Shown in pieces: positions 26,316 through 63,965 of a stretch of 64,000 nt of DNA. Position numbers and translations under genes: made by a program. Origin of the DNA: Naegleria gruberi (Eukaryota); NCBI GenBank assembly GCA_000004985.1, contig GG738848.1, one strand, 5' to 3'. How positions within the stretch are numbered: the first letter of the stretch is position 1; each line of letters begins with the position of its first letter. The notes under the pieces were generated by a model. It saw only the letters and a list, made by a program, of their open reading frames with translations, did not search any database and had not been told where the DNA came from.

Positions 26316-27776
26316 TTATTCAGAATTATTCTCACTATCATCTCTGATATCATACTTAGTTGGCTGTTCAATGTTTGGATAAAGTGCAGCAATTTTCTTG
26401 TTTAATTTTGGATTATCCTCGAGCCAATCAAAACGTTTCAAGTTGGGAGCAACAATTTTCAAAGATTGAGCTAATTTGTCCATTTGTTCTTCATTTTCAA
26501 ATTCATACGAGTTACCAATTCCAACAAATTCCAATCTTTCATTTGAATTTCCGCCAAAATACAAATCTTCATGTTGCGCTGTAACACCAACATAGATATT
26601 GTTTCGTCCAACATTGAAATATCTCAAATTGGGGAAATTTCCAAGTTTTTGAAGGCAAGATCCTGAAATTTCACACGCAGCTGGAATATCTATATATTCC
26701 AAATTTGGTAGTTTCTCTAAAAAATTGATTATTCCACTATCTGAAATAGATGCTTCAAAAGATGAACCAGAATCTGAACATTTCAAAGAAAATTTCTTCA
26801 ATTTTGGACAAGTTTCTGCCAAAACCTCTAAATGTCTATCAGTGAAATCATCTTCATAAATAAAATGAAATTCTTCCAAGTTGGGACAAAGTAAAAGAAA
26901 GCTCAATAAGTAATCTGCATAGTCATAATCTAAAACAAGACTAATACTTTTCAAATTGTTTAGAATTGGAACTTTGGCAATCTTTTCATCAAAACTTTCG
27001 CCCTTTTCAATTTCAAGCGTTTTTTGATGCATGTCATTAACATGATAATTTTGTGGAATTTCCAAACTTTGTAAATCTCTAAAATTCGTCAATATTTTCA
27101 ACATTGATTTTGGATTTAAACACCAATGAAGCACAATGCTTTTCACATTGAAACCATTTGCTGGACCACTGAGAGAAATTCTCTCTTTCTTCACATTGGA
27201 AAGAGATTTAAAATCTTTAAATGAAACTCTATTCGAAAATTCGATTGGAATACTTTCTATTTCAATGGGTGTGAGTTTTCCATCAGAATTTAACATTCTT
27301 GTATTGGTAATTTTGAATAGCGTTTCCCAATCTTCAGTTGAATCGATCAAATCAGATAATTCACCCAAAGAAACATTATTAGAAATACAATATTCCTTCA
27401 CTTGTTCAGAATTTTCCGAATTTAACACCAATTTGTTTTTTTGTCTATTAATTTAACATCCAGTCAAGCAAATGTAAACAGTGTTAATCCATTGTATATC
27501 CATTGATTGAACTTACTTGAGAGCATTCACCAAAGAGAAAGGTTTCGTTTTAGTTTCAATAAAATGTTTACAAACAACTTCCTTCACATAACTAATCATC
27601 CAATCAAAATTTTGCTTGGAAGTCAAAGCCCACATTAAAATACTTTCCGTTGGTAAATATTCAATAATAACAGACCATTCATCCATTGAAAGATTAGTGT
27701 TGAAAGTTGATGGTAAAGTTTTGACTTTTTTCGCTGAGTGAAAGCTTTCGTCCAGTTTATCTTGTGATCTTTTCAT
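26316..27776 (-). CDS. F-box/LRR-repeat protein (exons 27776..27517 and 27444..26316)
   Basis: ATG at 27776 verified. Exon 1 encodes an F-box (MDEWSVIIEYLPTESILMWALTSK). Donor CTCAA|gtaagt (phase 2), 72-nt intron, acceptor taatag|ACAAAAAAACAAATTGGTG. Exon 2 encodes leucine-rich repeats (LPNLEYIDIPAACEISGSCLQKLGNFPNLRYFNV...). The tool's 'M' at 27431 is a TTG inside this exon. Confidence 0.7.
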
Positions 27777-28016: not shown

Positions 28017-29231
28017 ATGGGTCAATCACAGAAACCAATAGCAGCTCCACAATCTGCAGAAACCACCCATCACCACAACTCCAAGGATCCTCCTAAATAT
28101 TCATTGTGCACTCGGAAAGAACATGAAAATTTCATCAAATTAATTGCAATTAAATCTTCCACTACTACCACCATAGAAAACAATTCCTTCAAGTTAAATG
28201 ATGAAGAAAATTCGCAATTTTACCTCCGAACAGTGCTGATCAGAGAGGAAAATAAATCGTGGTTGGAGAGGGAGCTACCCATTGAAATAATATTCGAAAT
28301 ATTGAGATATTTGCTACCTGATGATTTGATAATCTTGTCGGGAGTGAGTTGGAATTTCAGAGAGGTGTGGACAGAGCATCCATTCTTGTGGTTCTCTCCA
28401 TTGGAAAGTGGTGAGAATTATGGGAAATCACTCATGTCCAGAAAGTTAGTGGAAGATTTCATCAATAATTCAAATAATCTTGTTGCAAATTGGAAACAAA
28501 TATATCTTCAGATTGGAAATGTAATGATGTATCCGAAAAGTTTCTCAAATTTTGCAGATCAATGTGTCTATGGAAGAATCTATGGAGAATATAACACCAT
28601 TCAAAAAATTGGATTTATTGGAATGAAAGGATGTGGAAAATCAACTTTTTGTAAATTACTGGCCACTAACAAGTTGGATTTGCAAATGAAATCGACAATT
28701 GGTTGTGATTTTTACATTCAATATTTGAATCTGGACTTGGAGGAGAATAATCAACTTATCAAGTATTGCTTCAAGCTCGAAATTTGGGATGTAAGCGAAA
28801 TGTTCAGATCAGTTTACAGAGGTTTGCATGTAATATATTTTTGTTTTGATCTTTCGAATGAGGAGAGCTTATATCATATGATAAACATGTTCAAGGATTG
28901 CTGTACCAATGATTTGTACATTAATGACCTATCCAATCTTGAGAATGAATTGGATACAGATATTGTATTTCTAGGACTGAAGAAGGATAGCAAAACAATA
29001 TCGAATCATACCATTAACAATTGTATATATCCTTTCATTGACAGGAATGTGCCTTATCATCAAAGACGAGTTTCATATTTTGAGGTTAGTGCCAAAGAAC
29101 AGGATAGGACAACTTTCTATCCAGTATCTCACATTGGATTTTTACCATCAAAGAGAGAACATTGTTTCCCACTCACTCCACTCACAAAGGATAATGAAGA
29201 AAGATTTAGGAATTATGGAGCTTTGGATTAG
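28017..29231 (+). CDS. F-box protein fused to a degenerate Rab-like small-GTPase domain, N-myristoylation motif (404 aa)
   Basis: ATG verified. Begins MGQSQK (Gly2). F-box ELPIEIIFEILRYLLPDDLIILSGVSW. GTPase motifs: G1 GMKGCGKST, switch-I TIGCDF, G3 degenerate EIWDVSE (no Gly/Gln), G4-like LGLKKD, G5 EVSAKE. Confidence 0.65.
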   Translation: MGQSQKPIAAPQSAETTHHHNSKDPPKYSLCTRKEHENFIKLIAIKSSTTTTIENNSFKLNDEENSQFYLRTVLIREENKSWLERELPIEIIFEILRYLLPDDLIILSGVSWNFREVWTEHPFLWFSPLESGENYGKSLMSRKLVEDFINNSNNLVANWKQIYLQIGNVMMYPKSFSNFADQCVYGRIYGEYNTIQKIGFIGMKGCGKSTFCKLLATNKLDLQMKSTIGCDFYIQYLNLDLEENNQLIKYCFKLEIWDVSEMFRSVYRGLHVIYFCFDLSNEESLYHMINMFKDCCTNDLYINDLSNLENELDTDIVFLGLKKDSKTISNHTINNCIYPFIDRNVPYHQRRVSYFEVSAKEQDRTTFYPVSHIGFLPSKREHCFPLTPLTKDNEERFRNYGALD

Positions 29232-29975: not shown

Positions 29976-30520
29976 TTACATAATAGCACATGTTTTTCTT
30001 TGCTTTTTCTTTTCTTGTTTTGGTTCTGGTTTAGTTTTTCTAATTTCTCTAATTAATGTTCCAAATGCTTCATCCACATTCAATCTCTGTCTTGCTGAAG
30101 ATTCCAATAGTGGAATACCAAGCTCTTTGGCATACATTTTGGCCTTCTCCACTTTTACTGACCTTTCGGATTCCAAATCACATTTGTTTCCAACTAATAC
30201 CATTGGACACTTTTCACAATCTTTCACTCTGAGAATTTGTTCGTAGAATTCGTGAATTTCCTCAAACGACATTTTATCAATGATAGAATAAACCATGAGG
30301 AAACCATCTGCAGATCTCATATATTGATCTCTCAATGCTTGTATNNNNNNNNNNNNNNNNNNNNNNNNNNNNNNNNNNNNNNNNNNNNNNNNNNNNNNNN
30401 NNNNNNNNNNNNNNNNNNNNNNNNNNNNNNNNNNNNNNNNNNNNNNNNNNNNNNNNNNNNNNNNNNNNNNNNNNNNNNNNNNNNNNNNNNNNNNNNNNNN
30501 NNNNNNNNNNNNNNNNNACA
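29976..30520 (-). CDS. Ras-family small GTPase (Ras/Rap-like) with CaaX box CAIM; N-terminal about 58 codons lost in assembly gap
   Basis: Read after the gap: ...IQALRDQYMRSADGFLMVYSIIDK...VLVGNKCDL...ESSARQ...KTCAIM*. An ATG (aaaaaaaATG) sits immediately 3' of the N-run on the minus strand at about 30518-30520, consistent with G1-G3 lying inside the gap. Confidence 0.75.
30345..30517. other. Assembly gap (173 N)
   Basis: Run of N characters in the sequence. Confidence 0.98.
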
Positions 30521-30987
30521 TTTTTTTTGTATTGTTGTTTCGAATAAATTTTGCCTAGTTCCGCACTTAAATAGGTACAAGGAACTTGGAAGTGAGTTGC
30601 TACCATGTTCAGATAGTTCTTAAACAATAAGAGAAATTTGTTCAACAGTTCTTTTGTTATTATTCAGAGTTCCCGAACCAAGACCCTAATATATTTTCCA
30701 ATGACAACTAGCACATTCATATTATTGTCAGTGGTGGAATCTAACAAACGAATGAGAATGTGAACAACTCTGAAATGATTCGTTCAACACTACAATCTAT
30801 TCGCACCCAAAGCAAGGATTAGGAAACGATTCTTTTTGACTTGCTTTTCTCGTCGCACATGTTTTTTGTTTCACACTAATTTTTTGTTTTAGCTTATTTC
30901 TTGCTTTAGTATCTTTCTGGGGTGTGTAGTTTGTAGTGCAATTGAAAATCAATAAATTAACAATTAATTACAACTCAATTTATCCAA

Positions 30988-34786: not shown

Positions 34787-36388
34787 ATGAAAGTAAATAT
34801 TAGATGCTCTAATGGTGATACTTTTGCCGTTAATGATGTTGATCTTAACCAAACTGTTGCTGAATTCAAACAAGTTGTTGCTGACCAATCACAAATTCCT
34901 GCCAGTGACCAACGTTTGATTTATAGAGGTAAGGTGTTGAAGGATCAAGCTACCCTGAAGAGTTATGGAGTTGAAGATGGTCTAACTGTTCACTTGGTGA
35001 GAGGAACACCAAAACCAGCAACAGCCACACCATCAACTACTACTACTAGTACAACAGCCACCACCACTCCTACAACCACCACAACTACAACACCAACTCC
35101 TACAACCACAACACCAACCACAAATACAACTACCTCTACACCAACCTCCACTCCATCAAATAATACTACAAACCAACAACAACAACAAAATCCATTTAAT
35201 ATGTTTGGAGGTATGGGAGGTATGGGTAATATGTTCGGAAATATGGGAAGTGGTGGAATGCCAAATATGGATCCAAATACAATGCAACAAATGATGAATA
35301 ATCCTATGGTTCAAAGCTTAATGAATAATCCTGATTTTATTCGTGAAATTATGGGCACTAATCCACAAATTCAAGAAATTATGAGAAATAATCCTGAAGT
35401 TGGAAGAATGCTCCAAGATCCTGAAATGATCAGAAGAGCTATGGAAATGTCAAGAAATCCTGAACTCATGAGAGAAATGATGAGAAATACTGATTTGGCA
35501 CTCAGCAATATTGAAAATCTTCCTGGTGGATTTGATGCTCTCAGAAGAATGTACAGTGATGTTCAAGAACCTCTTCATGAAGCCACTAGTGAAATGTTGA
35601 GACAACCAAATCAACCAAACACTACTCCAAATCAACCAACAAATAATGTTCCAAGTGGACAACCATTCAACATGTGGGGAAATAACCCACCACCAACAAC
35701 TGGAACTACTACTACCAACACAAATACAACTAGTAATAATAACACTACCACTGGTACTAATCAAAATACTAATCCATTCTCAATGTTTGGAAATATGGGA
35801 GGAATGGGAGGTATGGGAGGAATGGGTGGAATGCCAAATATAAACCCACAACAAGCCCAACAAATGATGAATAATCCATTCATGCAACAAATGATGCAAC
35901 AAATGCTCTCAGATCCTAACACATTGGATCAATTGATTGGTTCTAATCCAATGCTTCAACAAATGTCACAACAAAATCCAATGCTGAGAACCATGTTGGG
36001 TAATCCACAATTTATTCAACAAGTCATGCAATTGCAAGGGTTATTAAATCAAAATCAACCTCCAAATACAACCACTAATACTGGTACAACGCCAACTGGT
36101 ACACCTAATCCATTTGAAAATTTGCAACAAATGATGCAAGGAATGAATTTGGGAGGAAATACAGGAGGTCAAAATCCATTTGCCATGTTTGGTAATCCAT
36201 TTATGGCACCTCAACAACAAACAAACCAACAACCACCTAGAGAACGTTTTGCTACTCAACTGACTCAACTTCAAGAAATGGGCTTTTTCGATGAACAATC
36301 AAACATTGAAGCTTTACTTGTGGCTAATGGTAATGTAAATGCAGCAATTGAATATCTCCTTTCCAATCCTCCTCCAAGCAGAAACTAA
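34787..36388 (+). CDS. Ubiquilin (Dsk2-like): N-terminal UBL, STI1-like Met/Asn-rich repeats, C-terminal UBA (533 aa)
   Basis: ATG verified. UBL MKVNIRCSNGDTFAVNDVDL...LIYRGKVLKDQATLKSYGVEDGLTVHLV. Long Thr/Pro/Asn linker. Repeated NPxxMQxMMxNP and GGMGGMG motifs. UBA FATQLTQLQEMGFFDEQSNIEALLVANGNVNAAIEYLL. TAA stop. Confidence 0.85.
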   Translation: MKVNIRCSNGDTFAVNDVDLNQTVAEFKQVVADQSQIPASDQRLIYRGKVLKDQATLKSYGVEDGLTVHLVRGTPKPATATPSTTTTSTTATTTPTTTTTTTPTPTTTTPTTNTTTSTPTSTPSNNTTNQQQQQNPFNMFGGMGGMGNMFGNMGSGGMPNMDPNTMQQMMNNPMVQSLMNNPDFIREIMGTNPQIQEIMRNNPEVGRMLQDPEMIRRAMEMSRNPELMREMMRNTDLALSNIENLPGGFDALRRMYSDVQEPLHEATSEMLRQPNQPNTTPNQPTNNVPSGQPFNMWGNNPPPTTGTTTTNTNTTSNNNTTTGTNQNTNPFSMFGNMGGMGGMGGMGGMPNINPQQAQQMMNNPFMQQMMQQMLSDPNTLDQLIGSNPMLQQMSQQNPMLRTMLGNPQFIQQVMQLQGLLNQNQPPNTTTNTGTTPTGTPNPFENLQQMMQGMNLGGNTGGQNPFAMFGNPFMAPQQQTNQQPPRERFATQLTQLQEMGFFDEQSNIEALLVANGNVNAAIEYLLSNPPPSRN

Positions 36389-50423: not shown

Positions 50424-53400
50424 TTATTTATTACTACTAATTTGCATACTTAAATGTCGATAAACTTCAAATAGATGGCATGTTTTGAATTCATCTGATA
50501 ATTGTAGTAACCATTCATAATCGCCTAATTTGTTTCCTTCTTGTGATTTGGCTCCTATGGCAGGAGTGATTTCAAGCATTTGTTTGAGAGGAATTTCAGA
50601 ATCGAGAGTTTCACTTGTAAAGTAGGAGAGAAGTAATTCTTTCATGGATGAAACTAGCATTGAACAATCGTCTGGAGAGAGGATATTCTTGAATTCATCG
50701 AGTTTTTGAACTAGCTCAGCAGGTAGAACCTTCTTGTACTTGTTGGCAATGGAGGAAGATTCAATAGAAGCACCTGGTGAGAGTTCATTCTCTAAGAGGG
50801 ACCACAAGGATACCAAATGGCATAACTTGACATGGACAATGATAGTATAACTCTTGGCAAGTGTTTGCTTTGTTACTTTTGGATCTACTAGAAGAATATT
50901 TTGAAGGTAGTCAATAATTGACATCTTTTCAACTTCCTCCAAATTGTTGGAACCAGAGATTGCTTGTAAGAATGAAATACACTCTTCAATTTGTCTAATG
51001 CAAGATTGGAACAAATCGAGTGAAGTCTCTCCACCTCTTAACTCTGAAACTATAGCTTGTTTCATATCTGTTGGTAATTCAACTTGTTTAATCTTGGACT
51101 TGAGCTCAGAAACTGGTCCTCCTACTTGGCCAAATCCACTTGAATATCTAGTTTCGTTAAGGAAGGTGAAATTCTCCAATTCCAATTTGATTTTCGGTTT
51201 TCCAGAAAGGTACTTGTTAACAATAAATTGTTCCACTCTTTGATAGTCAAACTTGTAAGAATTTTGCTTGTTGGTATCTTGGTCGAGTTCTGAATCAGTA
51301 ATGACAGGCATCACCTCTTCTTCAATATTAAAACTCACAAGATGATGTTTGCTAATGAAACGGCTAGAAATTTCAATTGGAGAAGATTCAGTGGACGTCT
51401 TGTTCAATAACTTGCCAGCTCTATCAATAATATCATTGTGCTTATCGACTAGGAATTGAATGAGAGCCAATGCACAAATTCCTTCATCTTGCTCATCTGG
51501 AATAGAGAAGGAAAGAGGTGTATCCTTACTCATACTAACATTCTTACACCATGCAGGCAGAGGTAAACATTGGTATCTTTCAATATATTTCCAACTGTGA
51601 TTGAATGATTTAGCCCAACCATCAAAGATCTTTTCAATAGATGCCTTCTCAGCTCCAAGTTGGAAGTGAATTGGTGACAAGGAAAGTGATGACATGAATT
51701 CTGAAAAGACATCTCTAACAGTTCTTGTTCTAGCATAGTGACGATCGATTCTTCTCGAGAAGGTATTGGTTACCAATTTTTGCCATTTCACAACATGAGG
51801 AATATATCTTGTTGGATAGAGTAAATGTTCATTTCTAATAAAGAGGCTCAAAATTGGATACTTTCTTTCTGCCTTATCTGCAATAAAGTATGATTTGAAT
51901 TGATCATAGGTAATTGGTGGCTTGATATTCCAAATTTGACTAATTGGATCAGAAAGTGGGAGAATAGGTTGTTTCAATTCTTGAGGTGCACCAGCTGAGG
52001 AAAAGAGTAGAATATTGGTTATTACATCATTGCCCTTCTTTTGGATGGAATCAAGTTGTTTGTAGTAGAGTTGATATTTCTTTGCAGCATTTTCTGTTAT
52101 CATTGTTACACATCCATTGAAGTGAGTTTCCCATCCAGATCTTCCTGCCTTTGTAGAAATGTCACGACTTGTGTATGGAAGTTTTGGATTGGTTCGTTTC
52201 TTTGTCTCCAACTGCTTGGAAGAGTAACTAAAGAATTCCAAAATATTAAACAAGAGAACACTGGCTTTCTCTTCATTTTGTCCTCCCAACAATTCACACA
52301 GAATACTCCAATCGTTCTTGATATGCCCGAGTAAGAATTCATTGAGATTGTCAACACTTGACATGGTCTTGTGGAAAACTTGTCTGTATTCCTCTTCTCT
52401 TTCTGGGAAGATTGAATTACCAACCAGTAAGAGGGAATGAATAATAAGTCTGATAATTCTGAACGATACTGGAGAAATTTCTCTTACTGTTGCAGCCAAG
52501 TCTCTTTCCTTAAAATGCTCATAAACAGCATAGCCCGTAGGTGCAATATCCTCATCCTGTTTAATCTTGTCGTTGGAGAAGTGAGGAACATGGTCAAATC
52601 CACCAATAGGTAATCCACACTCTGGACACATTGCAAATTCAGTTGGATATCCACAAGAATCGACTACATAAACATGGTTATTTGCACACTTGTACCAGGA
52701 GACAGTGCCATTATCAATTGTATTGATGACTTGTGTTCTGGCATCATCGGTAACACTTGGTAAGTATTTGTCTTTCAATGAAGATGGGTCGAACAATAAG
52801 AGCCACCAAAATTGATCTGTTACATAATTAGATAAGGCAACAGAACAAATGTGGTGAATAACGTGGACGAGTGTCAGATTTTCCAAAGTAGTATTCTCAT
52901 TAAGGAAGAAGAAACTATCCTCATTGAATGCATTGGAGGCAAACTTGATGGTCATGTGTACTTCCTTATCATCCCTCAAGACATGTTTGAGAAGGAAATT
53001 CTTGAGTTTGGTAATATCGATTGGACATGACTGAGTATTGACTTCATCCTCGGAGGTTAAAATCTTGGTGAATTTGTCCTTGTTAGAATTTTCAGAACAA
53101 TAGGACAAGTAGCACTTATCAACTACAGCAAGATAGCACAACTTCTTCAACGAATGAATATCTATTTGTTGTCCAGTATTGATGATTGCTTCTAGGGAGG
53201 CCTTGAGTTTGATAATAGACTCAGTCTTACTGTTGTAATCTCCTTGTTGTCTGAGACTCATAATCATGTCTACACAAGAGGCTAATTCTTCCAATCCATT
53301 CAACACGTGCATGAGTACATTTTGTGGAATATTGTCAGTGTACTTGAAACCTTGCAAGAGTGAAGAGACCCAAGGGAATTGTGGAGAAGCTCTAGAACGG

Positions 53401-56400
53401 AAAGTCTTGAGCAGGAATACTCTACCCTTTCTCTCAACAACTAATCTCAAAAGAACCATTTTGAGGAAGGAAAAGTTTGGTCTCTCAAATAAAGATAATA
53501 ATTGACGAGCTATTGGGCTAGATGAAATAAAATCCCTAATGGAATCACCTCTCTCCACTACTAGAATCAGTCTCTTTGAGAAGGTAGACATGGCACATCG
53601 TATTGCTGCTAGTAAATGGACATCCTTGATAATGTCTTTCCAAGAGGCAACGTCAACAAAATTGTCAGAGACAGATTCTAAAAGTTTAGATAATTGTTCT
53701 TCTGGTATGTTTTGAAGCACGGACTCATAAATAGACAAGTAGCTGATGAGTGTGCTTTGATCCAGAGATTCTGTCTTTGGACTGAGTTCTACTTTGAAAA
53801 TTTCCTTCAACTCTTCATTAACAAGTGGCTTGGTATTCTTATTGAGTAGGAGCTTTTTGAGAATGCTAACTTTGAGGTTTTGTGTTGCCTGCTTCATTAA
53901 TTGATTGAATTTTTCATTCTCTCCCTTGATAAGACCCATCAGTGCTCCAACAAGAGGTTTTTCAATGTCATCCTCTTTTCCAATTCTCCTCACAAGGAAT
54001 TTAGCTGTGAACATTTCAAAGAATCTAGTAATGTTGGTCTTTTTTCTACTTTCATCTGATTGGTTGGTTTTGTCGTTTTGAATATTATCTCCAATCTTGT
54101 TAACCAAATCTAAAAAGTATAATATCAAATCCAAACTACTTTGAGATGACAAACTCTTGGTTTTCATATTTTGCCATAAAATCATGGATATTTCCCTTAC
54201 AATACCGAGAGGAATTGCAATTTCTTGGAGGTACTCCTTGTAGAATTGAAGTTTTTGCCATTTTTCATGAATGTATCCAATATTCTTCAACATTGAACTT
54301 CTTGGGCCACCTGTCAAGTTTATAGTAGTACTGTGAATGAGAGTGATGAGTACTTCTACTGGGCTCTTAATATCTGTCAGTGTTTTGACCCAAATATTTC
54401 TTCTCTGGTTTGCAACAGTAATATCATGAGAGGTTTCAATATTTCTTGGATCCAAGTTATGATAAATAACACTAAAGAGCAGCATGTCAATCTCTTCAAT
54501 GGAAGATATTCTCAATGAAGGAACAAGAAGTTTTTGAAGGAACTTTCTCTGAAGAACAGACTTTGGGAAGGTTTCAAACAAGACATAATATGATTGAAGT
54601 CTTCTCTCCTGTCTCCAATAGAATGAAAGTATTTTAGCAATATTTGATCCTTCAGAAGGGTCTGCATCTAACATCTTTTTGATAATCTCATATTGTACCT
54701 CATTAGTTAACACTGTACACTGAACACCACAGATACACATGTAATCATAGAGGAAAAATTCAGAATATTCTCTTGGCAAGTTGTTCATGAAAGGATAGAT
54801 CATGTCAATATGCTTTTGTAAGGCCTCATAAACTCCCAATCTAGAACTTTCACATACACTTCTCCAGCTATGTAGATTTCTACAAACTTCGTAACTGAAA
54901 GGATATCTTGCTTGGAAAATTCTATTGTTATTACCATCACTCTTGACTTCTATTGGTTTCCATCTGAGTAGCTCAGCCATCGAAGATATTGTCTGTTCAT
55001 TTCGTGTTAACATGTGATTCACTGAAGGTCTCTTCAGGTCATCCAAAAGTTTAATCCACAAGTTTGTGCCTTCAGTTCTGTTGGTACTCTTGTATTCAAA
55101 GAAGAGTCTCAAATTGTCGTTTCTATCAATTTCAGCCAAAAGGAATGTAAATGATTTGATTAATATTCTCTCGACACAGTATTGAATAGCTGAGTGGTAT
55201 GTATTCACAACAAGGAAGTATTCGTTAATGTGGTTGGCTACATAGGTTGAGTAGAAGTTAATTTGATTTTGAGAAAAGTAGTCATGACAAATCTCCAAAA
55301 CCTTCTTGTTAATAACTTTCCAACATTCATCAGAATCAATGAGTTCGTTTGTTCTTGAAATTAAAAGAGTAATGTCATTAATTTTGGTATTGAATTTTCT
55401 TAGCATTGCCAGAGAGGTACGGAAGTTACTCTTAATAACTTGTCTCACATTAGTAGTTTGAATTTGTTCGGTGAATGGTCTGTTCAAAATTTCATAAATT
55501 GTAGTTTCTGTTGGTCTTATTTCATCAATAAATGCAAACTTCCATGGAATGTCAAATTCAATCAAGTGCTGACTGTTAATTGATTTTCCTGGAACAACAT
55601 TGATTAAGAGTAAAATGTTCTTTCCGACACTCTCACTAGGTGAGATACACTTTCTGTGCTTTTGGATTATAAACTTGGTTTGGTTCAAAAGGTCCAAATT
55701 CATATTTTCACATTGCAAAACAAGCAAGTGTTGTCCATTTGCTGAGGTAATTTTCTTTCCAAAGAATTGTTTTACAAGCTCTATTAATTCCATCTCTGAT
55801 TTGAGCTCAGCCATAGAAACAACAGAATGGTATTCTATGCTTGCTCCAATCTCTCTGGATGCCTGAATCAAGTTATCAATATTAATAGATACAGATGAAT
55901 AGGTAAGTAAACAAAGTTGGAAATATCCATAATAAATTAAGGAATTTGAAGACAGACCATTTTGAGATTGCTCTTGCAAAGAACCGAGCAAGAAATGAAG
56001 TAAATGAGGAAGGTCTCTGTGCTCTTGCTTTTCAAAATATGTTTTCAGATATTCCCTTGTTCTACTATTGTTGATAGAGGACATTCTAACCACAGCATCT
56101 GCAGTTGTAATCCACAATAGAGCATTCTTACAAATATCCAACAAGTAGTCATGGAGAGAAGGATCCTCAATTTGCTTGGTATCTAGTGATAAAACAAGCG
56201 ATTGAAGGAGTGATTTGTGAGTATTAACAAATGGTTTTTCATCATCACCAAAGGTTGTCTTGACCCACGATTGCAATCTACTGCACAAGTTCTTTACATT
56301 AACAGAGGCAGATTTGTCAAAGAGATCATCTCTGTGAAGTGTTTGCTTCTCAAATCTGTTGAGGAGTGGCTTGGCAAGTCGTGAGTAGGCATCGTCCTGA

Positions 56401-59400
56401 TCCACAATAACAATAACTCTAAAGTTCTTGTGAACAGAACAAATTCTACTGTATGTACCAAGTGAAATACCAACCACTCTATTCTCATCATACTCTATGT
56501 ATTGCAAATTGAACAAGTCGTAGAGACTTTCATATAATTGTTCACAATTTACCAAGACTACTGTTTTACCAGTTGACATGGCATTCTTAATTCTTTGAAT
56601 ATCCATACAAACCTGAAGTTCTTTAGTACTGTTAGGGAAGTTTGGACCAAAGACAACTTCTGCTTTATCATATGCAAGTAATTGTTTAAATTCTGAGAAG
56701 AGAATAGAGAGGGCAGCATTATTCTTTGTGAGTAGCATTAAATGTCTTGCCTTGGTATCGTTCAAATTTTCAGAAATATAATCCAACTTTGACTTCCTAT
56801 TGCTGATAATATTCATACCAACACAGGAGAAGAAGATATTCAAAACTCGAAGGAACTCTTCATTATTTGATCCTCCAAAGTTTCTGGCAAGAGCATCTGT
56901 GAGTAGCTCTGGTGAGAGTGTACCGTCAAAGTTTCTGTTAATAAACTTGACAGTGTGGTAAAAATCTCTCAATCCGAAAAAGTCCTTTCTTTGTTGACCA
57001 TTATATACATCATGGTAAGCCTTGGCCAAAGAATAGAGAGTACTGTCTAAATGCACAGAATTTACAATACCAGACAAGGTAGTTTTGAGTTCAAATGTTG
57101 AAGGTGAAGGTCTGGTCAAATAGACTGCTCTATTGATAAGGTTAGGATCCAATGTCCAGTTAGAAAGACCAATCACAGAGACAGAGCAATCCTCTTCCAA
57201 TTCCTTATTGACAACTTTGAGTGGATGGGAAGAACTATGTTCTAACAAGCCAACCTCGTTCAATAAAACTATGGCAATAGAATTTGGAGAATTCTTCTGA
57301 TATCTCTTGGCAGATTCAAAGCAACTCTTGACGCTCTCAGGTGTGGAAATTTGTGAACATTGATAAGTGAATATTTCAAGAGAAGGCAATGAGCGTAAAA
57401 AACTATTGACACTGGCTGTTCCATTGAGATTAGTGCTCAAAATCTCTAAACTCAATGACTTGGAAGAGCCACTCTTGCCATTGATGAATATTGGAATCCT
57501 ATTCAGTACACAAACAAGGGTCATGAAAATATTTTCTCGCAGAGCATGATTAAGTGCCACTCCCTTTGGAATGTTCAAGTGCATCGTGTAGTATCTTTGT
57601 TCTTCTGTGAGAGTATTGATAAAGTCACCCTTTTGATAGGAAAAGTAGGAAGCAATTTTGCTTCTTGAAGAGGTGAATAAATCTTCCAACTCCTTCACAA
57701 ATTCATCACGCTTGGAACTCAATCTGTGGTAATAACAATGTCCAAGAGAAAGTATGATAGAGTTCTTGATAATAAAGTTTGATTCCTCTAGGAAAAAGGT
57801 AGGATCAATACCATTTCTCTTTGAGAGTGATTGATAAAAGCTCTTGAATAAGTTAATGCAACGTTTAACATCTCTCAGATTCACAGCACTTCTTTCCATA
57901 TAAACCTTTCTAATGAATGATTGAGAGGCAAATATGAGCTCTGTAAAGCAATCAAAGAAGAGTCCAGACTTTCCGATATCCTCAACATTGATTTCCATGA
58001 GTAGAATGGCTCTAATGTATAACTGTTCAATAATAGGATTCAAAGAGCCAAAGTTAAATACATGATCCAAAATAGAGACAGGCATTGGATATACCTTATA
58101 GATAAGACATTGTGAAAAAACTTGAATATCCAAACCTGTGGTTCTTTGGAGGGCTCTAATATTGTCTTTCAAAATATCAGATTTTTGACCAGAGGAACCA
58201 TATTCAATGTCTGTTCCAGCATATCTTCTCAGTCTGTATGGATTACAGGAGGCAACAATCTTCAAATTTCTAGGTAGCACCTTATTATGAACACAATTGT
58301 CACAAATTAATTCTTTAAATAATCCTAAATTATTAGAGGTGTTTACCTTGTCAAAGAAGGCTATAATCTCCTTCTTTGGATTGAGTCTGGCTTCTGCAAT
58401 GAGCGGATTCAACCAATTCAAAATATCATTAGATGTGTGACCTTCATTCACAGCAAATCTCTTCAACTTTATACCAAGAACAGAGCACAAGTATTTGGTT
58501 AGTTCTGATTTACCAACACCACTATCACCACAAAGAATTGTAGGTAAATTGTATTTCATCTTGTGATAAATCATCAATACCTTGCTCAAATTATCTACAG
58601 TGAGAACGTAATTATTGCTGATTTTCTTTTCATTGGTTTCATCCTGTTTCAAGCCAGCAACATTTCTAATAATTTCTTGAGCCCTATCATGAGATAAATC
58701 TCTTGGGGTCTCCAAGTCTATACCATTACATGAAAGAGAGTATTTTAACTCTTCATTAAGTTCGAGCTTGTCAGTATTGATACCAATAAGATCAATTCCT
58801 GTTATTTCATTAATGTTACTTCTATAGAAAACAACTAGAGGATGTTGAGATGCTTGCTCCTCCCACTTGCTTAATCTATGTTCAAACATTTCGACATATT
58901 GGAGAAGTAAAATCTCAGTGTATGGTTTTCCTTCATACTTCTTAGCAAGCGAAATAATAAAGTCCTTTTCAACAGAAATAGCTGTTAAATCCCTTGCTGA
59001 CTTGATCATTAAATCAATCATGGCGTGTTTGAATAATTGCATGCTTCCTTCCATAACACAATTTTTAAAGCAAACATATCTAGAAGTGCTCAAAAATTGC
59101 CCATACAAGAATCGTACAAAATTGTTCACCACAGAGAAGGAGGCATTGTCAGGTTTGAATCCAGTGTACTTGCACAACAGCTTGAAGCAAGCTTTCAGAC
59201 TCAAGTCTGGTGCCTTTACAGGATCAAAATCTGGTACGCTAGGAGCTGCATTCTTGAATACATTCTCCTCGAAGGCTTTCAAAAATTTACAAACATATTG
59301 TACCTTATTATCATCTGTGCACATAATATCAATACTATCATCTTCCATGTTAATAAGTTCATAGTTTACCAATTCCAGACTTGATTCATCTGTAGTTATT

Positions 59401-62400
59401 TCTTCAATTGGCAAAGCAGTGCAAAAGTAAACAAATTCACTCAAAATTGGCACACAAAGACTATTTGGAATCTCGATATAGAATTGGATATTTGGAACAA
59501 TATGGAAAACACTTGCAGTTTCTCTGTCTCTAACACAACCAAGATAGAACAATTCAAATAACAAGGAATTCATGTGCTTTGGTATTATGTTACAGAGAGC
59601 AAGATGGAAAGCAATTTCTTTTCCTTGATTTTGATTTGTTGTTTTCCAGAGTAGGCCAACTATTTCTTTCACTGTTGAATCTTCTAATACAGTTACTCTA
59701 CTGTATTTCTTCTTATTCAAATAGATATCCTTCAGGATAAATCTAGACTTTCCTGCACCAGTTCTATTGGAGGTAACACATTTGACATTGGATCCTTGGT
59801 ATGATTTCATTATATTTACAATATACTTCTTTGGAAGAGTTTTGAAGGACTTGTCAACATAGTTTGAAAATTCCAACAAGAGACGAGCATTGTTGTTATC
59901 TGAACCACCAATAAGAACTAGTTTTCCAGTATTTTCCTTTTTAGAGAGGGATGAAAGAATTTCCTGTATCTTGAGAAGCATTTTAGATTGAACAATGTAT
60001 GGAAGTTCTTGAATATTGGCAATGCAATACATGTTATCACGCTTTTCTTTCACCTTGGAGTTTAACCATCTATTCAAAATCAACTCGATATCCTCCATAT
60101 CAGTGCTAAAAGAGTTGCACAGCAAAACTTCCTCACTCAAAGGAAGTCTTCCACGTAGTGAGTATAAGGAAATGATAGCATCCATAACTTCCTTCTCCTT
60201 TTGAAGTTTGATAATCTTGAAAACTCCATCAAATGTATTTAACGAATATTTAGATTGGACATTGGTTGGCAATTCATACTGCGATTTTCTATAAGAATTT
60301 TCTCTTCTAGAAAAGATGCTTTCAATAAAGGAGCATAACTTTCTCATCTTCTCTTCAGCTGCACAATCGGTAACAAAGTCCAAATTGAGAACGGTAATGC
60401 AGTTTTCAATGTCAGACAGCTCTAGGTTATGATCACCAAGTTTAAGAATGGATAACAAATCATAGATGGATGATCTCTCAGAATCTTGTTGATATTTCTT
60501 AAGTAATTCGTAGACTCTCAAAGATTCCTTTGCTCTAAAAAGATTCATATAGTAATTTCCATTCCTCGAGTTCTCTGTTATCTTCTTCCATTTTTCTAAT
60601 TTTTCTAGTAATTCAGCATGATACTTTTGAATATATTCAGGAGAACACTCTGAAGCTCTTATGGCCTTGAAGTAGTTTTCTTGGAATTCAAAGTGAGCTT
60701 GTTTGCATAAATCCAGCAAGGATGCCTTGATATCCAACATTAGAGTAATACATCTTACAAAAAGATTAATCCTAGAATTAACATCATCCAACGTTTTGAT
60801 ATTGTCTGGTATTTCGCTCAACATTAACTTATTTCTCAACTCTACAAGTCCATCAATAGTCATAACCTGTTGTTGTAAACTTAATCTTCTTATTTGGGAG
60901 GTATTCATAATTGGATGTGATGGCATAATCTTACATAGAATGACACTAGGATCAGCCAAATTAAATTCATACTGTCCTCTTTCTGTAATAGCTGCAAGAT
61001 CGTAGAGAGCCTGAACACCTCCACTTCTTGTTTTCTCTTCAAACATGCTGAGGAGAAGTGTGAAATTCTTCTTCAAGTTACTCAACTGAGACAAGTCATC
61101 ATTACTAATTTCCAACTTGGTCATTGAATTCTTAAAATTTTCCAAGCTAATAAAATTAATATTTGCATGGTCAACTTGATTCGAATAGATAAAGTCAGAA
61201 ATACAATCCCTGACAACCACCAAACTTTTCAAGGATTGTAAAATCTTTACCGAGTCAGTATAACTCTTACAAATCTCTACAAGGTTATCAAATTCAGAAT
61301 TGGATTTGTAATTTAATAGCCAGTCTATAATAGAAAATCCTGTACTATCACATAGTAATTTCATGAAGGAAAGTTGATTATCGTTAAATCCTTTAAAAAA
61401 TCTAGTAAACAAGAGTAGGTTAAAGTTACTCTTTTGGTCTTCAAACATTGCCAATGTTTGGCTTTCAAGCATACTTTGTTGATTGAGAGTGTTGGACTCT
61501 TTCTTTAATTGAATATAATCAGTGTCTTTCTTTAAATCAATAGTAAAGTACGGCTCAAAATGTTCAACTAATAAGAGAAGAGAAGGTAAATAGGATCTAT
61601 AGAGATTAATCTTTTCGAAGCTATTGATAATATTCAACCTCTTGGATACCCATTCAAGATCTTCCTTGTTAGGAGTTCTATCTGACGATTTTCCATTAAA
61701 GGTCATTCTCACACTCAGCAACTCTTCTTGATATTGGACATTAGTGCTGGATAGTAAACTGTCAACTCTATTCTCATATCTACACTTTCTCAGGATTGAA
61801 TAAAACTCGTTCAATTTGATTGAGAGAGAATCGATTGACTTGTAAAATCCCAGCCACTTATTCTTTACATCTGGAACCAACTTATTCTTGATAGAATCGA
61901 TGGTGTGTTTTTCATTATTGGAAGCTTTTGTGTAGAGATCCCTCCACAAAACAAGGAAAAACTCTGAGGTTCTCAACTCGTAGAAGAAAGCCAACTCTTC
62001 AAATCCAAATGGAATGAGCTCGGATACTTGCTTTTGAATCTTTTTAAATACCATTTCTCCCATATTTCTTCTAATTTTGATGATGGTATCTAACACTAGA
62101 CTAGTATCAAAAAAGTTTGGATCATCAGCAAACATGGTCAAGAAATTCTGGGCTGCATCAAGAGTAGTCTTGAAAGAAAGCAACTCTTGTCTCAATTGTT
62201 TTACATGAGATTCATTGAATCCAACATCTCCCATCAAGTATACCAATTTCATGAACTGAGCTTCGTGTTTCAAGACCATGTGAAGAGTTGATATGGTGCA
62301 TGTCTTGTCCAATAATTGGAACACAAGTTTGAAGTAAATGTCCATCAGGGCGGAAACTTCTGTTTGGATCTTGGTAAAGTTCTCATTGCCCGAATTCTTT

Positions 62401-63965
62401 TCAGTATTCTTGATAAACTTGAAAAAGTGGTAGCACAGAGGATTTTTAACGATGGTCTCATAGCTTTGTTGTAAGTTAGAAGACAATAGCAATGTCTTTA
62501 GGAAAACCAAACTAATGTCCTCATCTACAACATGAGTAATAATCTCGAACAGTAGGACGGCCTCCTTGCTGGTTGCACTCTGAGTGATGAATTGGCAACA
62601 CTTATCAATAATGTAACTCTTCAGAGTGTTGGAAAACATGCTTCCCTTGAATCTTCCCATAAATTCTATATATTCAAAAGCAGAGAGGGAAACAAAGAAT
62701 GGTGTCAACATTAATTCGTCAAGCAAGACATGTACATATTCCTTCAAAAAGTTTAACTTGACCAATCTATCAATAAAGAGTAGGAAATTCTCTAACTTCA
62801 TTGTGTTCTGTTGACTTTGAAGAAGGAACAAGAGTGAGGTGGAATTTCTTTTTGATTGGCTGCTGGTGACTTCTTTAGAATCACTTGACTCCACAATTCT
62901 GATGTTGTGGGTAAAGATGTGAATGAGCCAACGTTTTGTTCCATCAAATAATCTGAAGTATCCTTGGATTGAATTGGCTTGATTGATGTTCATTTGAATA
63001 TTTTCTAATAGATTGGCAATCTCATTCAAATCATTTTCGGTATTGATTTCTGCAACCACTGGAGATTGAATCATACAATAAATAATCTCTTCATTTGGGA
63101 GCAAGTTACACATTTGAAATATGGTATCCAAGTCTCTTCTAGTGTTAACCAAATCTGAATTAAAGCTCTGAAGTTGATACCTGTTATTGAGTTCCTTGAT
63201 CTTTTTCTTTAAACATTGAAAAACTGTTGATCTGATCTTTTGTGAATTGTCATGATAAATTAATGAATGGTCCTTCATCTTCTTTATCAATGCCAAGAGA
63301 GATTGGAAGCTTGGAGCATTTGAAATTAATCTTTGAATATCTAGAGAAATTTTCTTTTCCTTCTCTGAATTAAAAATTTCCTTCTCAAAAACTTCATTCA
63401 TTTGCTCAATATTTTCACAACTTGTATAGTCAATCATGTTTTCAGAGGAATTCTTTTCAGAGCTGAATAATTCTTCGTCAGATGAAGAGTTTGAATCAGA
63501 TGTTACAACATCTTCCTCTAGAATAGGTTTTGATTTGACTTTTGGAAGTTGTTTTGGAGAAGCTGTAATCATTCTATCCCTTGAACGAGCATCCTTCTCA
63601 GAGGGAGAACTTGGTGGAGTATTTGGCGATTGATATCCAGTCGTGTTATTATTGTTATTGGAAGGAAATGGATGAAATTGATTTCCAGCCACTGTAGTTG
63701 GTGTATTAGATCCAAAATATCCACTATAATCCTCCATAGATGTACTAGTTGTGTTGGTAGAGATGGATCCAGTTGTGGAAATTTCAATTTCCTCCTCACT
63801 TGTTGTGTAAATAAATGGAATATTCATATCTAGGTTATGAGTGAAAGAACCCTTAAATGATCCACTACTACTCGTTGATGAGAACATTTTGATTGGAAGT
63901 GTCGATTGTTGATGGCCACTGTGCAATAAGCTGTCTCCAAAAATACCCTCTCCACTGTGTTGCAT
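50424..63965 (-). CDS. RNF213-like giant AAA+ ATPase with C-terminal RZ-type zinc finger (at least 4513 aa, single exon, 5' end probably beyond window)
   Basis: 13.5-kb uninterrupted ORF, TAA stop at 50424. ATG at 63965, but the frame stays open upstream to the window edge. S/T/N-rich disordered N-terminus. At least three Walker-A modules (SNRTGAGKSRF, CGDSGVGKSELT, INGKSGSSKSLS) in a dynein-like AAA core. About 600 aa from the C-terminus: YKCANNHVYVVDSCGYPTEFAMCPECGLPIGGFDHVPHF, the RZ-finger signature shared by RNF213/ZNFX1. No RING finger found by eye. Confidence 0.8.
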   Translation of the reverse strand: MQHSGEGIFGDSLLHSGHQQSTLPIKMFSSTSSSGSFKGSFTHNLDMNIPFIYTTSEEEIEISTTGSISTNTTSTSMEDYSGYFGSNTPTTVAGNQFHPFPSNNNNNTTGYQSPNTPPSSPSEKDARSRDRMITASPKQLPKVKSKPILEEDVVTSDSNSSSDEELFSSEKNSSENMIDYTSCENIEQMNEVFEKEIFNSEKEKKISLDIQRLISNAPSFQSLLALIKKMKDHSLIYHDNSQKIRSTVFQCLKKKIKELNNRYQLQSFNSDLVNTRRDLDTIFQMCNLLPNEEIIYCMIQSPVVAEINTENDLNEIANLLENIQMNINQANSIQGYFRLFDGTKRWLIHIFTHNIRIVESSDSKEVTSSQSKRNSTSLLFLLQSQQNTMKLENFLLFIDRLVKLNFLKEYVHVLLDELMLTPFFVSLSAFEYIEFMGRFKGSMFSNTLKSYIIDKCCQFITQSATSKEAVLLFEIITHVVDEDISLVFLKTLLLSSNLQQSYETIVKNPLCYHFFKFIKNTEKNSGNENFTKIQTEVSALMDIYFKLVFQLLDKTCTISTLHMVLKHEAQFMKLVYLMGDVGFNESHVKQLRQELLSFKTTLDAAQNFLTMFADDPNFFDTSLVLDTIIKIRRNMGEMVFKKIQKQVSELIPFGFEELAFFYELRTSEFFLVLWRDLYTKASNNEKHTIDSIKNKLVPDVKNKWLGFYKSIDSLSIKLNEFYSILRKCRYENRVDSLLSSTNVQYQEELLSVRMTFNGKSSDRTPNKEDLEWVSKRLNIINSFEKINLYRSYLPSLLLLVEHFEPYFTIDLKKDTDYIQLKKESNTLNQQSMLESQTLAMFEDQKSNFNLLLFTRFFKGFNDNQLSFMKLLCDSTGFSIIDWLLNYKSNSEFDNLVEICKSYTDSVKILQSLKSLVVVRDCISDFIYSNQVDHANINFISLENFKNSMTKLEISNDDLSQLSNLKKNFTLLLSMFEEKTRSGGVQALYDLAAITERGQYEFNLADPSVILCKIMPSHPIMNTSQIRRLSLQQQVMTIDGLVELRNKLMLSEIPDNIKTLDDVNSRINLFVRCITLMLDIKASLLDLCKQAHFEFQENYFKAIRASECSPEYIQKYHAELLEKLEKWKKITENSRNGNYYMNLFRAKESLRVYELLKKYQQDSERSSIYDLLSILKLGDHNLELSDIENCITVLNLDFVTDCAAEEKMRKLCSFIESIFSRRENSYRKSQYELPTNVQSKYSLNTFDGVFKIIKLQKEKEVMDAIISLYSLRGRLPLSEEVLLCNSFSTDMEDIELILNRWLNSKVKEKRDNMYCIANIQELPYIVQSKMLLKIQEILSSLSKKENTGKLVLIGGSDNNNARLLLEFSNYVDKSFKTLPKKYIVNIMKSYQGSNVKCVTSNRTGAGKSRFILKDIYLNKKKYSRVTVLEDSTVKEIVGLLWKTTNQNQGKEIAFHLALCNIIPKHMNSLLFELFYLGCVRDRETASVFHIVPNIQFYIEIPNSLCVPILSEFVYFCTALPIEEITTDESSLELVNYELINMEDDSIDIMCTDDNKVQYVCKFLKAFEENVFKNAAPSVPDFDPVKAPDLSLKACFKLLCKYTGFKPDNASFSVVNNFVRFLYGQFLSTSRYVCFKNCVMEGSMQLFKHAMIDLMIKSARDLTAISVEKDFIISLAKKYEGKPYTEILLLQYVEMFEHRLSKWEEQASQHPLVVFYRSNINEITGIDLIGINTDKLELNEELKYSLSCNGIDLETPRDLSHDRAQEIIRNVAGLKQDETNEKKISNNYVLTVDNLSKVLMIYHKMKYNLPTILCGDSGVGKSELTKYLCSVLGIKLKRFAVNEGHTSNDILNWLNPLIAEARLNPKKEIIAFFDKVNTSNNLGLFKELICDNCVHNKVLPRNLKIVASCNPYRLRRYAGTDIEYGSSGQKSDILKDNIRALQRTTGLDIQVFSQCLIYKVYPMPVSILDHVFNFGSLNPIIEQLYIRAILLMEINVEDIGKSGLFFDCFTELIFASQSFIRKVYMERSAVNLRDVKRCINLFKSFYQSLSKRNGIDPTFFLEESNFIIKNSIILSLGHCYYHRLSSKRDEFVKELEDLFTSSRSKIASYFSYQKGDFINTLTEEQRYYTMHLNIPKGVALNHALRENIFMTLVCVLNRIPIFINGKSGSSKSLSLEILSTNLNGTASVNSFLRSLPSLEIFTYQCSQISTPESVKSCFESAKRYQKNSPNSIAIVLLNEVGLLEHSSSHPLKVVNKELEEDCSVSVIGLSNWTLDPNLINRAVYLTRPSPSTFELKTTLSGIVNSVHLDSTLYSLAKAYHDVYNGQQRKDFFGLRDFYHTVKFINRNFDGTLSPELLTDALARNFGGSNNEEFLRVLNIFFSCVGMNIISNRKSKLDYISENLNDTKARHLMLLTKNNAALSILFSEFKQLLAYDKAEVVFGPNFPNSTKELQVCMDIQRIKNAMSTGKTVVLVNCEQLYESLYDLFNLQYIEYDENRVVGISLGTYSRICSVHKNFRVIVIVDQDDAYSRLAKPLLNRFEKQTLHRDDLFDKSASVNVKNLCSRLQSWVKTTFGDDEKPFVNTHKSLLQSLVLSLDTKQIEDPSLHDYLLDICKNALLWITTADAVVRMSSINNSRTREYLKTYFEKQEHRDLPHLLHFLLGSLQEQSQNGLSSNSLIYYGYFQLCLLTYSSVSINIDNLIQASREIGASIEYHSVVSMAELKSEMELIELVKQFFGKKITSANGQHLLVLQCENMNLDLLNQTKFIIQKHRKCISPSESVGKNILLLINVVPGKSINSQHLIEFDIPWKFAFIDEIRPTETTIYEILNRPFTEQIQTTNVRQVIKSNFRTSLAMLRKFNTKINDITLLISRTNELIDSDECWKVINKKVLEICHDYFSQNQINFYSTYVANHINEYFLVVNTYHSAIQYCVERILIKSFTFLLAEIDRNDNLRLFFEYKSTNRTEGTNLWIKLLDDLKRPSVNHMLTRNEQTISSMAELLRWKPIEVKSDGNNNRIFQARYPFSYEVCRNLHSWRSVCESSRLGVYEALQKHIDMIYPFMNNLPREYSEFFLYDYMCICGVQCTVLTNEVQYEIIKKMLDADPSEGSNIAKILSFYWRQERRLQSYYVLFETFPKSVLQRKFLQKLLVPSLRISSIEEIDMLLFSVIYHNLDPRNIETSHDITVANQRRNIWVKTLTDIKSPVEVLITLIHSTTINLTGGPRSSMLKNIGYIHEKWQKLQFYKEYLQEIAIPLGIVREISMILWQNMKTKSLSSQSSLDLILYFLDLVNKIGDNIQNDKTNQSDESRKKTNITRFFEMFTAKFLVRRIGKEDDIEKPLVGALMGLIKGENEKFNQLMKQATQNLKVSILKKLLLNKNTKPLVNEELKEIFKVELSPKTESLDQSTLISYLSIYESVLQNIPEEQLSKLLESVSDNFVDVASWKDIIKDVHLLAAIRCAMSTFSKRLILVVERGDSIRDFISSSPIARQLLSLFERPNFSFLKMVLLRLVVERKGRVFLLKTFRSRASPQFPWVSSLLQGFKYTDNIPQNVLMHVLNGLEELASCVDMIMSLRQQGDYNSKTESIIKLKASLEAIINTGQQIDIHSLKKLCYLAVVDKCYLSYCSENSNKDKFTKILTSEDEVNTQSCPIDITKLKNFLLKHVLRDDKEVHMTIKFASNAFNEDSFFFLNENTTLENLTLVHVIHHICSVALSNYVTDQFWWLLLFDPSSLKDKYLPSVTDDARTQVINTIDNGTVSWYKCANNHVYVVDSCGYPTEFAMCPECGLPIGGFDHVPHFSNDKIKQDEDIAPTGYAVYEHFKERDLAATVREISPVSFRIIRLIIHSLLLVGNSIFPEREEEYRQVFHKTMSSVDNLNEFLLGHIKNDWSILCELLGGQNEEKASVLLFNILEFFSYSSKQLETKKRTNPKLPYTSRDISTKAGRSGWETHFNGCVTMITENAAKKYQLYYKQLDSIQKKGNDVITNILLFSSAGAPQELKQPILPLSDPISQIWNIKPPITYDQFKSYFIADKAERKYPILSLFIRNEHLLYPTRYIPHVVKWQKLVTNTFSRRIDRHYARTRTVRDVFSEFMSSLSLSPIHFQLGAEKASIEKIFDGWAKSFNHSWKYIERYQCLPLPAWCKNVSMSKDTPLSFSIPDEQDEGICALALIQFLVDKHNDIIDRAGKLLNKTSTESSPIEISSRFISKHHLVSFNIEEEVMPVITDSELDQDTNKQNSYKFDYQRVEQFIVNKYLSGKPKIKLELENFTFLNETRYSSGFGQVGGPVSELKSKIKQVELPTDMKQAIVSELRGGETSLDLFQSCIRQIEECISFLQAISGSNNLEEVEKMSIIDYLQNILLVDPKVTKQTLAKSYTIIVHVKLCHLVSLWSLLENELSPGASIESSSIANKYKKVLPAELVQKLDEFKNILSPDDCSMLVSSMKELLLSYFTSETLDSEIPLKQMLEITPAIGAKSQEGNKLGDYEWLLQLSDEFKTCHLFEVYRHLSMQISSNK

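Follow-up and report, generated by a model that had tools for sequence, protein, structure and literature searches.

Proteins in which an F-box precedes a Rab-like GTPase domain were described by Herman et al. in 2021, who reanalysed the Ras superfamily in Naegleria (BMC Biol 19:142, PMC8296547) and, in Table S8 and Supplementary Material 4, set out three Naegleria-specific F-box–Rab-like clades for which "GTPase-dependent ubiquitination" was proposed. These clades (RabX13-15) evolve by birth and death, share a conserved extension at the N-terminus that can be recognised as an F-box, carry a CaaX motif in one subgroup and include putative pseudogenes, for example RabX13e and RabX12; Naegleria has RhoBTB in addition to the F-box fusions (PMC8296547). 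The gene considered here, at 28017..29231 (+) of a 64,000-nucleotide stretch of Naegleria gruberi contig GG738848.1 (the window, in what follows), encodes one of the proteins tabulated there: Table S8 enters XP_002681903.1 under "Rab ... F-box" and gives N. fowleri RabX13d (NfowleriV212_g4434.t1) as its orthologue (PMC8296547).

F-box and GTPase domains also meet in TbFRP, a FYVE–F-box–Ras-like GTPase restricted to Euglenozoa, for which an orthologue was looked for in N. gruberi without success and whose F-box was proposed to underlie the rapid proteolysis of TbFRP itself (Adung'a & Field 2013, PMC3593210), as well as in Legionella effectors, where Rab domains are accompanied by an F-box or a U-box (Gomez-Valero et al., bioRxiv 10.1101/350777). 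In Rab40, a SOCS box assembles a Cul5 ligase and Rab-bound proteins are ubiquitylated (PMC8129794, PMC9070665), with targets that include EPLIN, ANKRD28, and DNAJC13 (PMC8129794, PMC9070665, PMC13474656). A preliminary description of the locus, made from the letters of the window, had supposed that F-box–Rab fusions were undescribed, which was wrong in view of the tabulated accession (PMC8296547), TbFRP (PMC3593210), and the Legionella effectors (10.1101/350777). With the gene annotated, its architecture tabulated and the ubiquitylation hypothesis published, the system is already known and not a discovery.

XP_002681903.1 is a real gene in which an F-box is joined to a degenerate Rab-like GTPase domain. 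In the list of open reading frames of the window, 28017..29231 (+) is a single unbroken frame of 404 codons plus stop; an in-frame stop sits 18 codons 5' of its ATG, which is the first after that stop, and a database search returned a protein with 100% identity (N. gruberi NEG-M XP_002681903.1 / EFC49159.1 / D2V1F9) that is annotated as "rab family member". The G+C content of the window (~33%) and the ordinary eukaryotic neighbours (a P450, a PAS/TPR protein, an aldehyde dehydrogenase, a DEAD-box helicase, and a ubiquilin) fit an origin from N. gruberi. The features of the gene, all on the plus strand, are as follows (residue numbers are those of the protein; pLDDT, predicted local distance difference test).

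28017..29231 (+): complete single-exon gene XP_002681903.1, N. gruberi orthologue of N. fowleri RabX13d (reading-frame list, exact protein match, first ATG after a stop, Herman 2021 Table S8)
28017..28271 (+): N-terminal region, residues 1-85, of low predicted order and beginning MGQSQK (pLDDT <50 at residues 1-32 and 38-73)
28272..28391 (+): F-box, LPIEIIFEILRYLLPDDLIILSGVSWNFREVW..., residues 86-125 (Pfam PF00646/PF12937 above gathering scores; helical, pLDDT 70-81)
28392..28607 (+): linker from F-box to GTPase, residues 126-197, poorly conserved and helical at low confidence (alignment; pLDDT 37-60)
28608..29105 (+): Rab-like small-GTPase domain, residues 198-363 (Pfam Ras and Roc, PDB sequence matches, Foldseek)
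28620..28646 (+): G1 or P-loop, GMKGCGKST, residues 202-210, intact (G202, G207, and K208 invariant in the family alignment)
28779-28829 (+): shortened switch II, residues 255-271, with an in-frame loss of ~6-7 residues (alignment to Rab1A and family)
28788..28799 (+): degenerate G3, DVSE, residues 258-261 (D258-V-S-E261), in place of the DTAGQ of Rabs (alignment to Rab1A and family)
28977..28988 (+): G4, LKKD, residues 321-324, with the Asn of NKxD replaced and Lys and Asp kept (family alignment)
29088..29096 (+): G5, SAK, residues 358-360, intact (family alignment)
29181..29228 (+): C-terminal tail LTKDNEERFRNYGALD, residues 389-404, lacking a prenylatable Cys (conserved only in the closest relatives)

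Pfam places an F-box (PF00646, E 3.2e-7, 30.4 bits against a curated cut-off of 20.5, residues ~86-125; F-box-like PF12937, E 2.1e-6, 27.8 bits against 24.3, within residues 86-128) ahead of a Ras domain (PF00071, E 3.2e-11, 43.5 bits against a cut-off of 21.6, residues 198-363), with Roc (PF08477, E 4e-9) likewise above its cut-off, so that both domains named in the preliminary description, and their order, were borne out. The F-box pattern LPxE..I..L...L..L..VS.NF..W is kept in 17 relatives in the family alignment, and the core positions that mark the F-box family (L-P, I/L, and V-S/C...W within a motif of ~40-50 residues) are all occupied. About 20 of 32 F-box residues are identical in the 40%-identical N. 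lovaniensis protein (P0002), which also keeps the C-terminal tail (...LTKENMAQFSNYGILD); that these two elements are retained in so diverged a protein argues for selection. The tail motif LT.[DE]N...F..YG.LD-COOH is common to the window protein, P0002 and the fragment P0010 (...LTDENRSRFETYGNLD), and is not found in other F-box–Rab-like relatives. No Pfam match was obtained in the linker (residues 126-197).

The small-GTPase fold, too, agrees with profile and structure searches. In a sequence search of PDB chains, all 60 matches shown were Rab or Ypt proteins, with Rab1A on top (1.3e-6), followed by Rab9A, Rab1B, and Ypt1. An AlphaFold2 model, computed from the 17-sequence family alignment, had a mean pLDDT of 64, with most of the GTPase part at 70-96, and its best 50 Foldseek matches in the PDB were again all Rab or Ypt structures (E ~1e-10, target template modelling (TM) score 0.57-0.75). 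By sequence and structure matches, the traffic Rabs closest to the domain are Rab1, Ypt1, Rab9, and Rab35.

Within this fold, the motif reading of the preliminary description (P-loop and G5 intact, DVSE for DTAGQ) was reproduced in alignments to the family and to Rab1A. Thr227 of switch I is intact within STIGCDF, and DVSE lacks both the gamma-phosphate-sensing Gly (DxxG) and the catalytic Gln. Every relative in which switch II is recognisable has ~6-7 more residues there; two more degenerate relatives, P0007 and P0044, are also gapped at this place, and the closest relative, P0002, has DLAGG and a full-length switch II, DLAGGDKFATIRQAYTRGL. The RabF motifs that Pereira-Leal and Seabra are said to have defined in 2000 reportedly read IGVDF, KLQIW, RFRSIT, YYRGA, and LVYDIT. 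Counterparts of the first two are present (IGCDF and KLEIW), the position of LVYDIT is taken by FCFDLS, and the switch II deletion collapses RFRSIT and YYRGA into MFRSVYRGL. The C-terminus (...RFRNYGALD) has no Cys in its last five residues, the nearest being ~20 residues from the end; without a C-terminal Cys motif for geranylgeranylation, the domain is better called Rab-like than a canonical Rab. By sequence criteria it can be classed as a putative pseudoGTPase, as the Gln and the Gly of DxxG are lost and switch II is short while the P-loop, the Lys and Asp of G4, and G5 are kept. Such a domain should bind guanine nucleotide, yet should neither hydrolyse it efficiently nor make the normal switch II transition, and the earlier suggestion that the domain is probably "GTPase-dead or GTP-locked" is reasonable on sequence grounds.

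The family to which the protein belongs was found only by an exhaustive HMMER search of 1.84 billion representatives (E ≤ 1e-3), which returned 158 proteins, ~20 of them matching over most of the query and in both domains; word-indexed homologue searches returned almost nothing (a single protein, the window protein itself, with one sequence as query and three with a profile). P0002 (N. lovaniensis XP_044544452.1) is the top relative, with 40% identity and E 9e-45. N. gruberi paralogues are XP_002674035, XP_002672750, XP_002672693, XP_002670446, XP_002677172, XP_002672819, and XP_002673544; longer Naegleria forms occur in N. fowleri (XP_044565615, 954 aa) and N. gruberi (XP_002676828, 929 aa), and the family extends to Willaertia magna (KAL9645612.1) and several metagenomic proteins. 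Both the F-box and Ras passed Pfam in six of seven relatives scanned (P0002, P0004, P0011, P0016, P0018, and P0126), and in P0007 only the F-box did. That the frame might be two genes, or hide an intron, is ruled out: it is continuous, the tblastx segments against the N. lovaniensis gene all lie in one window frame, and relatives from N. lovaniensis, Willaertia magna, and among the N. gruberi paralogues share the fused architecture. The preliminary description had thus rightly treated the frame as one gene, and the same fusion, when sought, was met with in these species as well as in N. fowleri.

Motifs were counted in 17 aligned family members and in 50 canonical Rab hits of the same search. 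DxxGQ is present in none of the 17 family members compared with 41 of the 50 Rabs, and a Cys within the last five residues in 2/17 compared with 42/50, from which we infer that the family has lost the catalytic Gln and C-terminal prenylation. At the aligned G4 position, no family member has Asn, the residue being L, T, M, or F. Outside these counts, a 299-aa protein (P0103; locus L002, Logan SRR7081580 contig, 973 bp) carries an F-box-like domain at residues 8-45 that is joined to a Rab domain close to canonical (Pfam Ras 3e-49), and its last residues, CSLQ, are CaaX-like; its sequence suggests that the prenylation motif is kept there and that F-box–Rab fusions occur beyond the Naegleria RabX13-15 clades.

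Regarding the locus itself, the N. lovaniensis gene carries an intron of ~50 nt between G1 and G2, and tblastx showed no conserved synteny between the flanks of the two genes, so that the case for orthology is the assignment by Herman et al. together with best-hit status. By tblastx, the N. lovaniensis locus matched the window at one further place only, the ubiquitin-like domain of a ubiquilin-type gene, and this match is accordingly not a sign of synteny.

The N-terminus deserves separate attention, as the protein had been described as N-myristoylated. Gly2 is indeed present (MGQSQK). The N-myristoyltransferase consensus of PROSITE (PS00008) is G-{EDRKHPFYW}-x(2)-[STAGCN]-{P}, and GQSQKP fails it twice, having Lys at position 5, where [STAGCN] is needed, and Pro at position 6; myristoylation is therefore not established for the window protein. 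The consensus is passed by nine of the 13 other relatives starting with MG, including N. lovaniensis (GQKQTA). A Met-Gly start is found in 14/17 family members and in 1/50 canonical Rab hits (Fisher p ~1e-10), and the residue after the conserved Gly of the family is Gln or Asn. Judged from the sequences, it is hence plausible that the family undergoes N-myristoylation or some other process that depends on Gly2. The one Met-Gly starter (MGNKKSKS) among the 50 canonical Rab hits, P0037 (214 aa), has WDIGGD without the catalytic Gln and neither an F-box nor a C-terminal Cys; a Rab-like protein that is myristoylated and akin to the GTPase domain of the family is one possible reading.

The main text of Herman et al. 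and those supplementary files that were searched mention neither myristoylation nor Willaertia, and the word "catalytic" does not occur in their GTPase supplements (PMC8296547). The family-wide loss of Gln, the conservation of Met-Gly, the member-specific switch II deletion, and the Willaertia magna homologue were not found in that paper, and the conserved C-terminal tail is a further small addition of the present analysis. These additions refine the published picture and do not change it.

On balance, we lean towards explaining the protein as a member of a heterolobosean-specific, rapidly evolving F-box–Rab-like family (the RabX13d orthologue) that would act as an SCF (Skp1–Cul1–F-box) adaptor with a Rab-like target module, an explanation to which we give somewhat better than even weight. 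The F-box would dock on Skp1 and thereby recruit the Cul1-Rbx1 core of the ubiquitin ligase, and the Rab-like domain, probably nucleotide-bound and without hydrolysis or normal switching, would serve as a target-binding or localising module. Proteins that bind this domain as Rab effectors or regulators do would then be ubiquitylated, which would make the protein a Cul1-based equivalent of Rab40–Cul5 and RhoBTB–Cul3. If the protein attaches to membranes at all, the conserved N-terminal Gly would provide the anchor in place of C-terminal prenylation, a step that is doubtful for the window protein. An SCF-adaptor function is plausible, with Rab40–Cul5 as a precedent and with the same GTPase-dependent ubiquitination proposed by Herman et al. 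Only tentatively do we extend the SCF-adaptor explanation to the family at large, as N-terminally lipidated, membrane-anchored SCF (Cul1) receptors that recognise targets through a Gln-less Rab domain, that would have exchanged C-terminal prenylation for anchoring via the N-terminal Gly. Individual members such as the window protein, with DVSE and a truncated switch II, would have turned into constitutive, nucleotide-locked pseudoGTPase receptors, and the family would be a counterpart of Rab40–Cul5 that arose independently on Cul1. This refinement would be new, as neither Met-Gly conservation nor family-wide Gln loss is given in PMC8296547. In Naegleria, the genus of the brain-eating pathogen N. 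fowleri, the family is expanded and turns over quickly, and it may have a role where the organism meets its environment.

Several observations weigh against the SCF-adaptor explanation. The two mismatches to PS00008 speak against a lipid anchor for this member, and the AlphaFold2 model has a predicted TM score of 0.49, with low confidence for the linker and for how the two domains are placed relative to each other. Herman et al. called specific functional prediction impossible (PMC8296547), and the F-box of TbFRP was proposed to serve the turnover of the GTPase itself and not substrate recruitment (PMC3593210). Membership in a birth-and-death family with pseudogenes, together with the lineage-specific switch II deletion of this member, could moreover reflect relaxed constraint.

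If the F-box served self-regulation, as proposed for TbFRP, the GTPase itself would be ubiquitylated and short-lived, and its Rab-like domain would signal or traffic instead of receiving substrates. Domain order and conservation fit this scenario equally well, and RhoBTB proteins are themselves Cul3 substrates. We nevertheless regard it as unlikely, since F-box proteins as a class are receptors, in which autoubiquitylation usually accompanies and does not replace receptor function, and since, with switch II truncated, the Rab-like domain would hardly serve well as a conventional signalling switch. The least probable of the explanations weighed here is a role outside cullin ligases, in which the F-box would bind Skp1 as in yeast Rcy1–Skp1, which acts in endosome-to-Golgi recycling; the protein would then serve membrane traffic and would not be part of an E3. 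No resemblance to Rcy1 was seen in the sequence, and the absence of a prenylation site and the doubtful lipidation signal make membrane association uncertain. In favour of such a role are the similarity of the GTPase domain to traffic Rabs (Rab1, Ypt1, Rab9, and Rab35 being the nearest) and the non-SCF Skp1–F-box complexes of yeast that are tied to Rab (Ypt31/32) traffic.

It is also conceivable, if distinctly improbable, that the gene is a paralogue in decay or without function, with the degenerate G3 and short switch II as early pseudogenisation and the intact frame as a recent survivor. Without selection, 404 open codons would hardly be expected at ~33% G+C, the switch II deletion preserves the frame, and the F-box, P-loop, Lys and Asp of G4, G5, and C-terminal tail are all kept in comparison with the 40%-identical, orthologue-like protein of N. 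lovaniensis. What decay has in its favour are the putative pseudogenes RabX13e and RabX12 (PMC8296547), the lack of the switch II deletion in P0002 and the non-conserved synteny with the N. lovaniensis locus.

The surroundings of the gene lend no support to a local origin by fusion of neighbours, both of which lie on the opposite strand (the upstream one divergent, the downstream one convergent), and a tblastn search with the protein found no paralogue in the window. The other features referred to here are the following.

26316-27776 (-): upstream divergent neighbour, apparently of two exons (reading frames 27513-27776, 87 aa, then 26316-27431, 371 aa)
29976-30521 (-): downstream convergent canonical Ras-family gene with the CaaX box CAIM (Pfam Ras 1.4e-30 on the C-terminal 122 aa)
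34787-36388 (+): ubiquilin-type gene (ubiquitin, UBQLN1, STI1, and UBA domains; from domain content)
50424-63965 (-): very long open reading frame of 4513 aa in the last 13.5 kb of the window (reading-frame list)

In the upstream neighbour, the 87-aa frame contains an F-box-like stretch, WSVIIEYLPTESILMWALTSKQNFDWM, without a Pfam match at E ≤ 0.1, and the 371-aa frame has a weak match to LRR_14 (4e-4, below cut-off); an FBXL-type F-box/leucine-rich-repeat protein may therefore adjoin the F-box–Rab gene. The 5' half of the downstream Ras gene is broken by an assembly gap of 173 bases (a run of N at 30345-30517), which leaves its model incomplete in the assembly.

In comparison with the known systems, RabX13-15 stand apart in that the window protein belongs to this family itself, with the same architecture, the same link to ubiquitylation and no close relatives outside the group (PMC8296547). 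TbFRP resembles it in having an F-box N-terminal to a Rab-related GTPase (closest to Rab18/Ypt6), in coming from Discoba, the supergroup that also includes Naegleria, and in its proposed ubiquitin-dependent turnover. It differs by an N-terminal FYVE domain that binds phosphatidylinositol 3-phosphate, for which the Naegleria protein has no match at E up to 1; nor did a FYVE domain appear in those multi-domain matches that were checked among the top 150 of the exhaustive search, and the long matches with both F-box and Ras were Naegleria or metagenomic proteins. Homology between the F-box–GTPase fusions of FRP, which was compared by its published description, and of Naegleria is thus unsupported, and an independent origin is likely. 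The Legionella effectors likewise combine a Rab-like domain and an F-box in one polypeptide, but are bacterial, were presumably acquired from protist hosts and vary in architecture.

The best functional analogy is offered by Rab40, in which a Rab fold is fused to a docking motif for a cullin adaptor. Its SOCS box is C-terminal and engages Elongin B/C–Cul5, whereas the F-box here is N-terminal and of the Skp1–Cul1 type; Rab40 also has canonical G motifs and is prenylated, and beyond the Rab fold there is no sequence relationship. RhoBTB, in turn, is comparable in that an atypical small-GTPase domain with impaired hydrolysis is fused to a cullin-adaptor domain, yet it relies on BTB and Cul3 instead of F-box and Cul1, its GTPase is of the Rho family and the GTPase comes first in order. 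A Pfam scan detected neither a SOCS box nor a BTB domain in the window protein; the resemblance to Rab40 and RhoBTB is one of functional analogy only. Should the SCF-adaptor explanation prove true, Naegleria would join Rab40–Cul5 and RhoBTB–Cul3 as a third instance, independent of these two, in which a small-GTPase fold is coupled directly to a cullin-RING ligase, and this would lend support to the view that ubiquitylation gated or scaffolded by a GTPase is a recurrent evolutionary solution.

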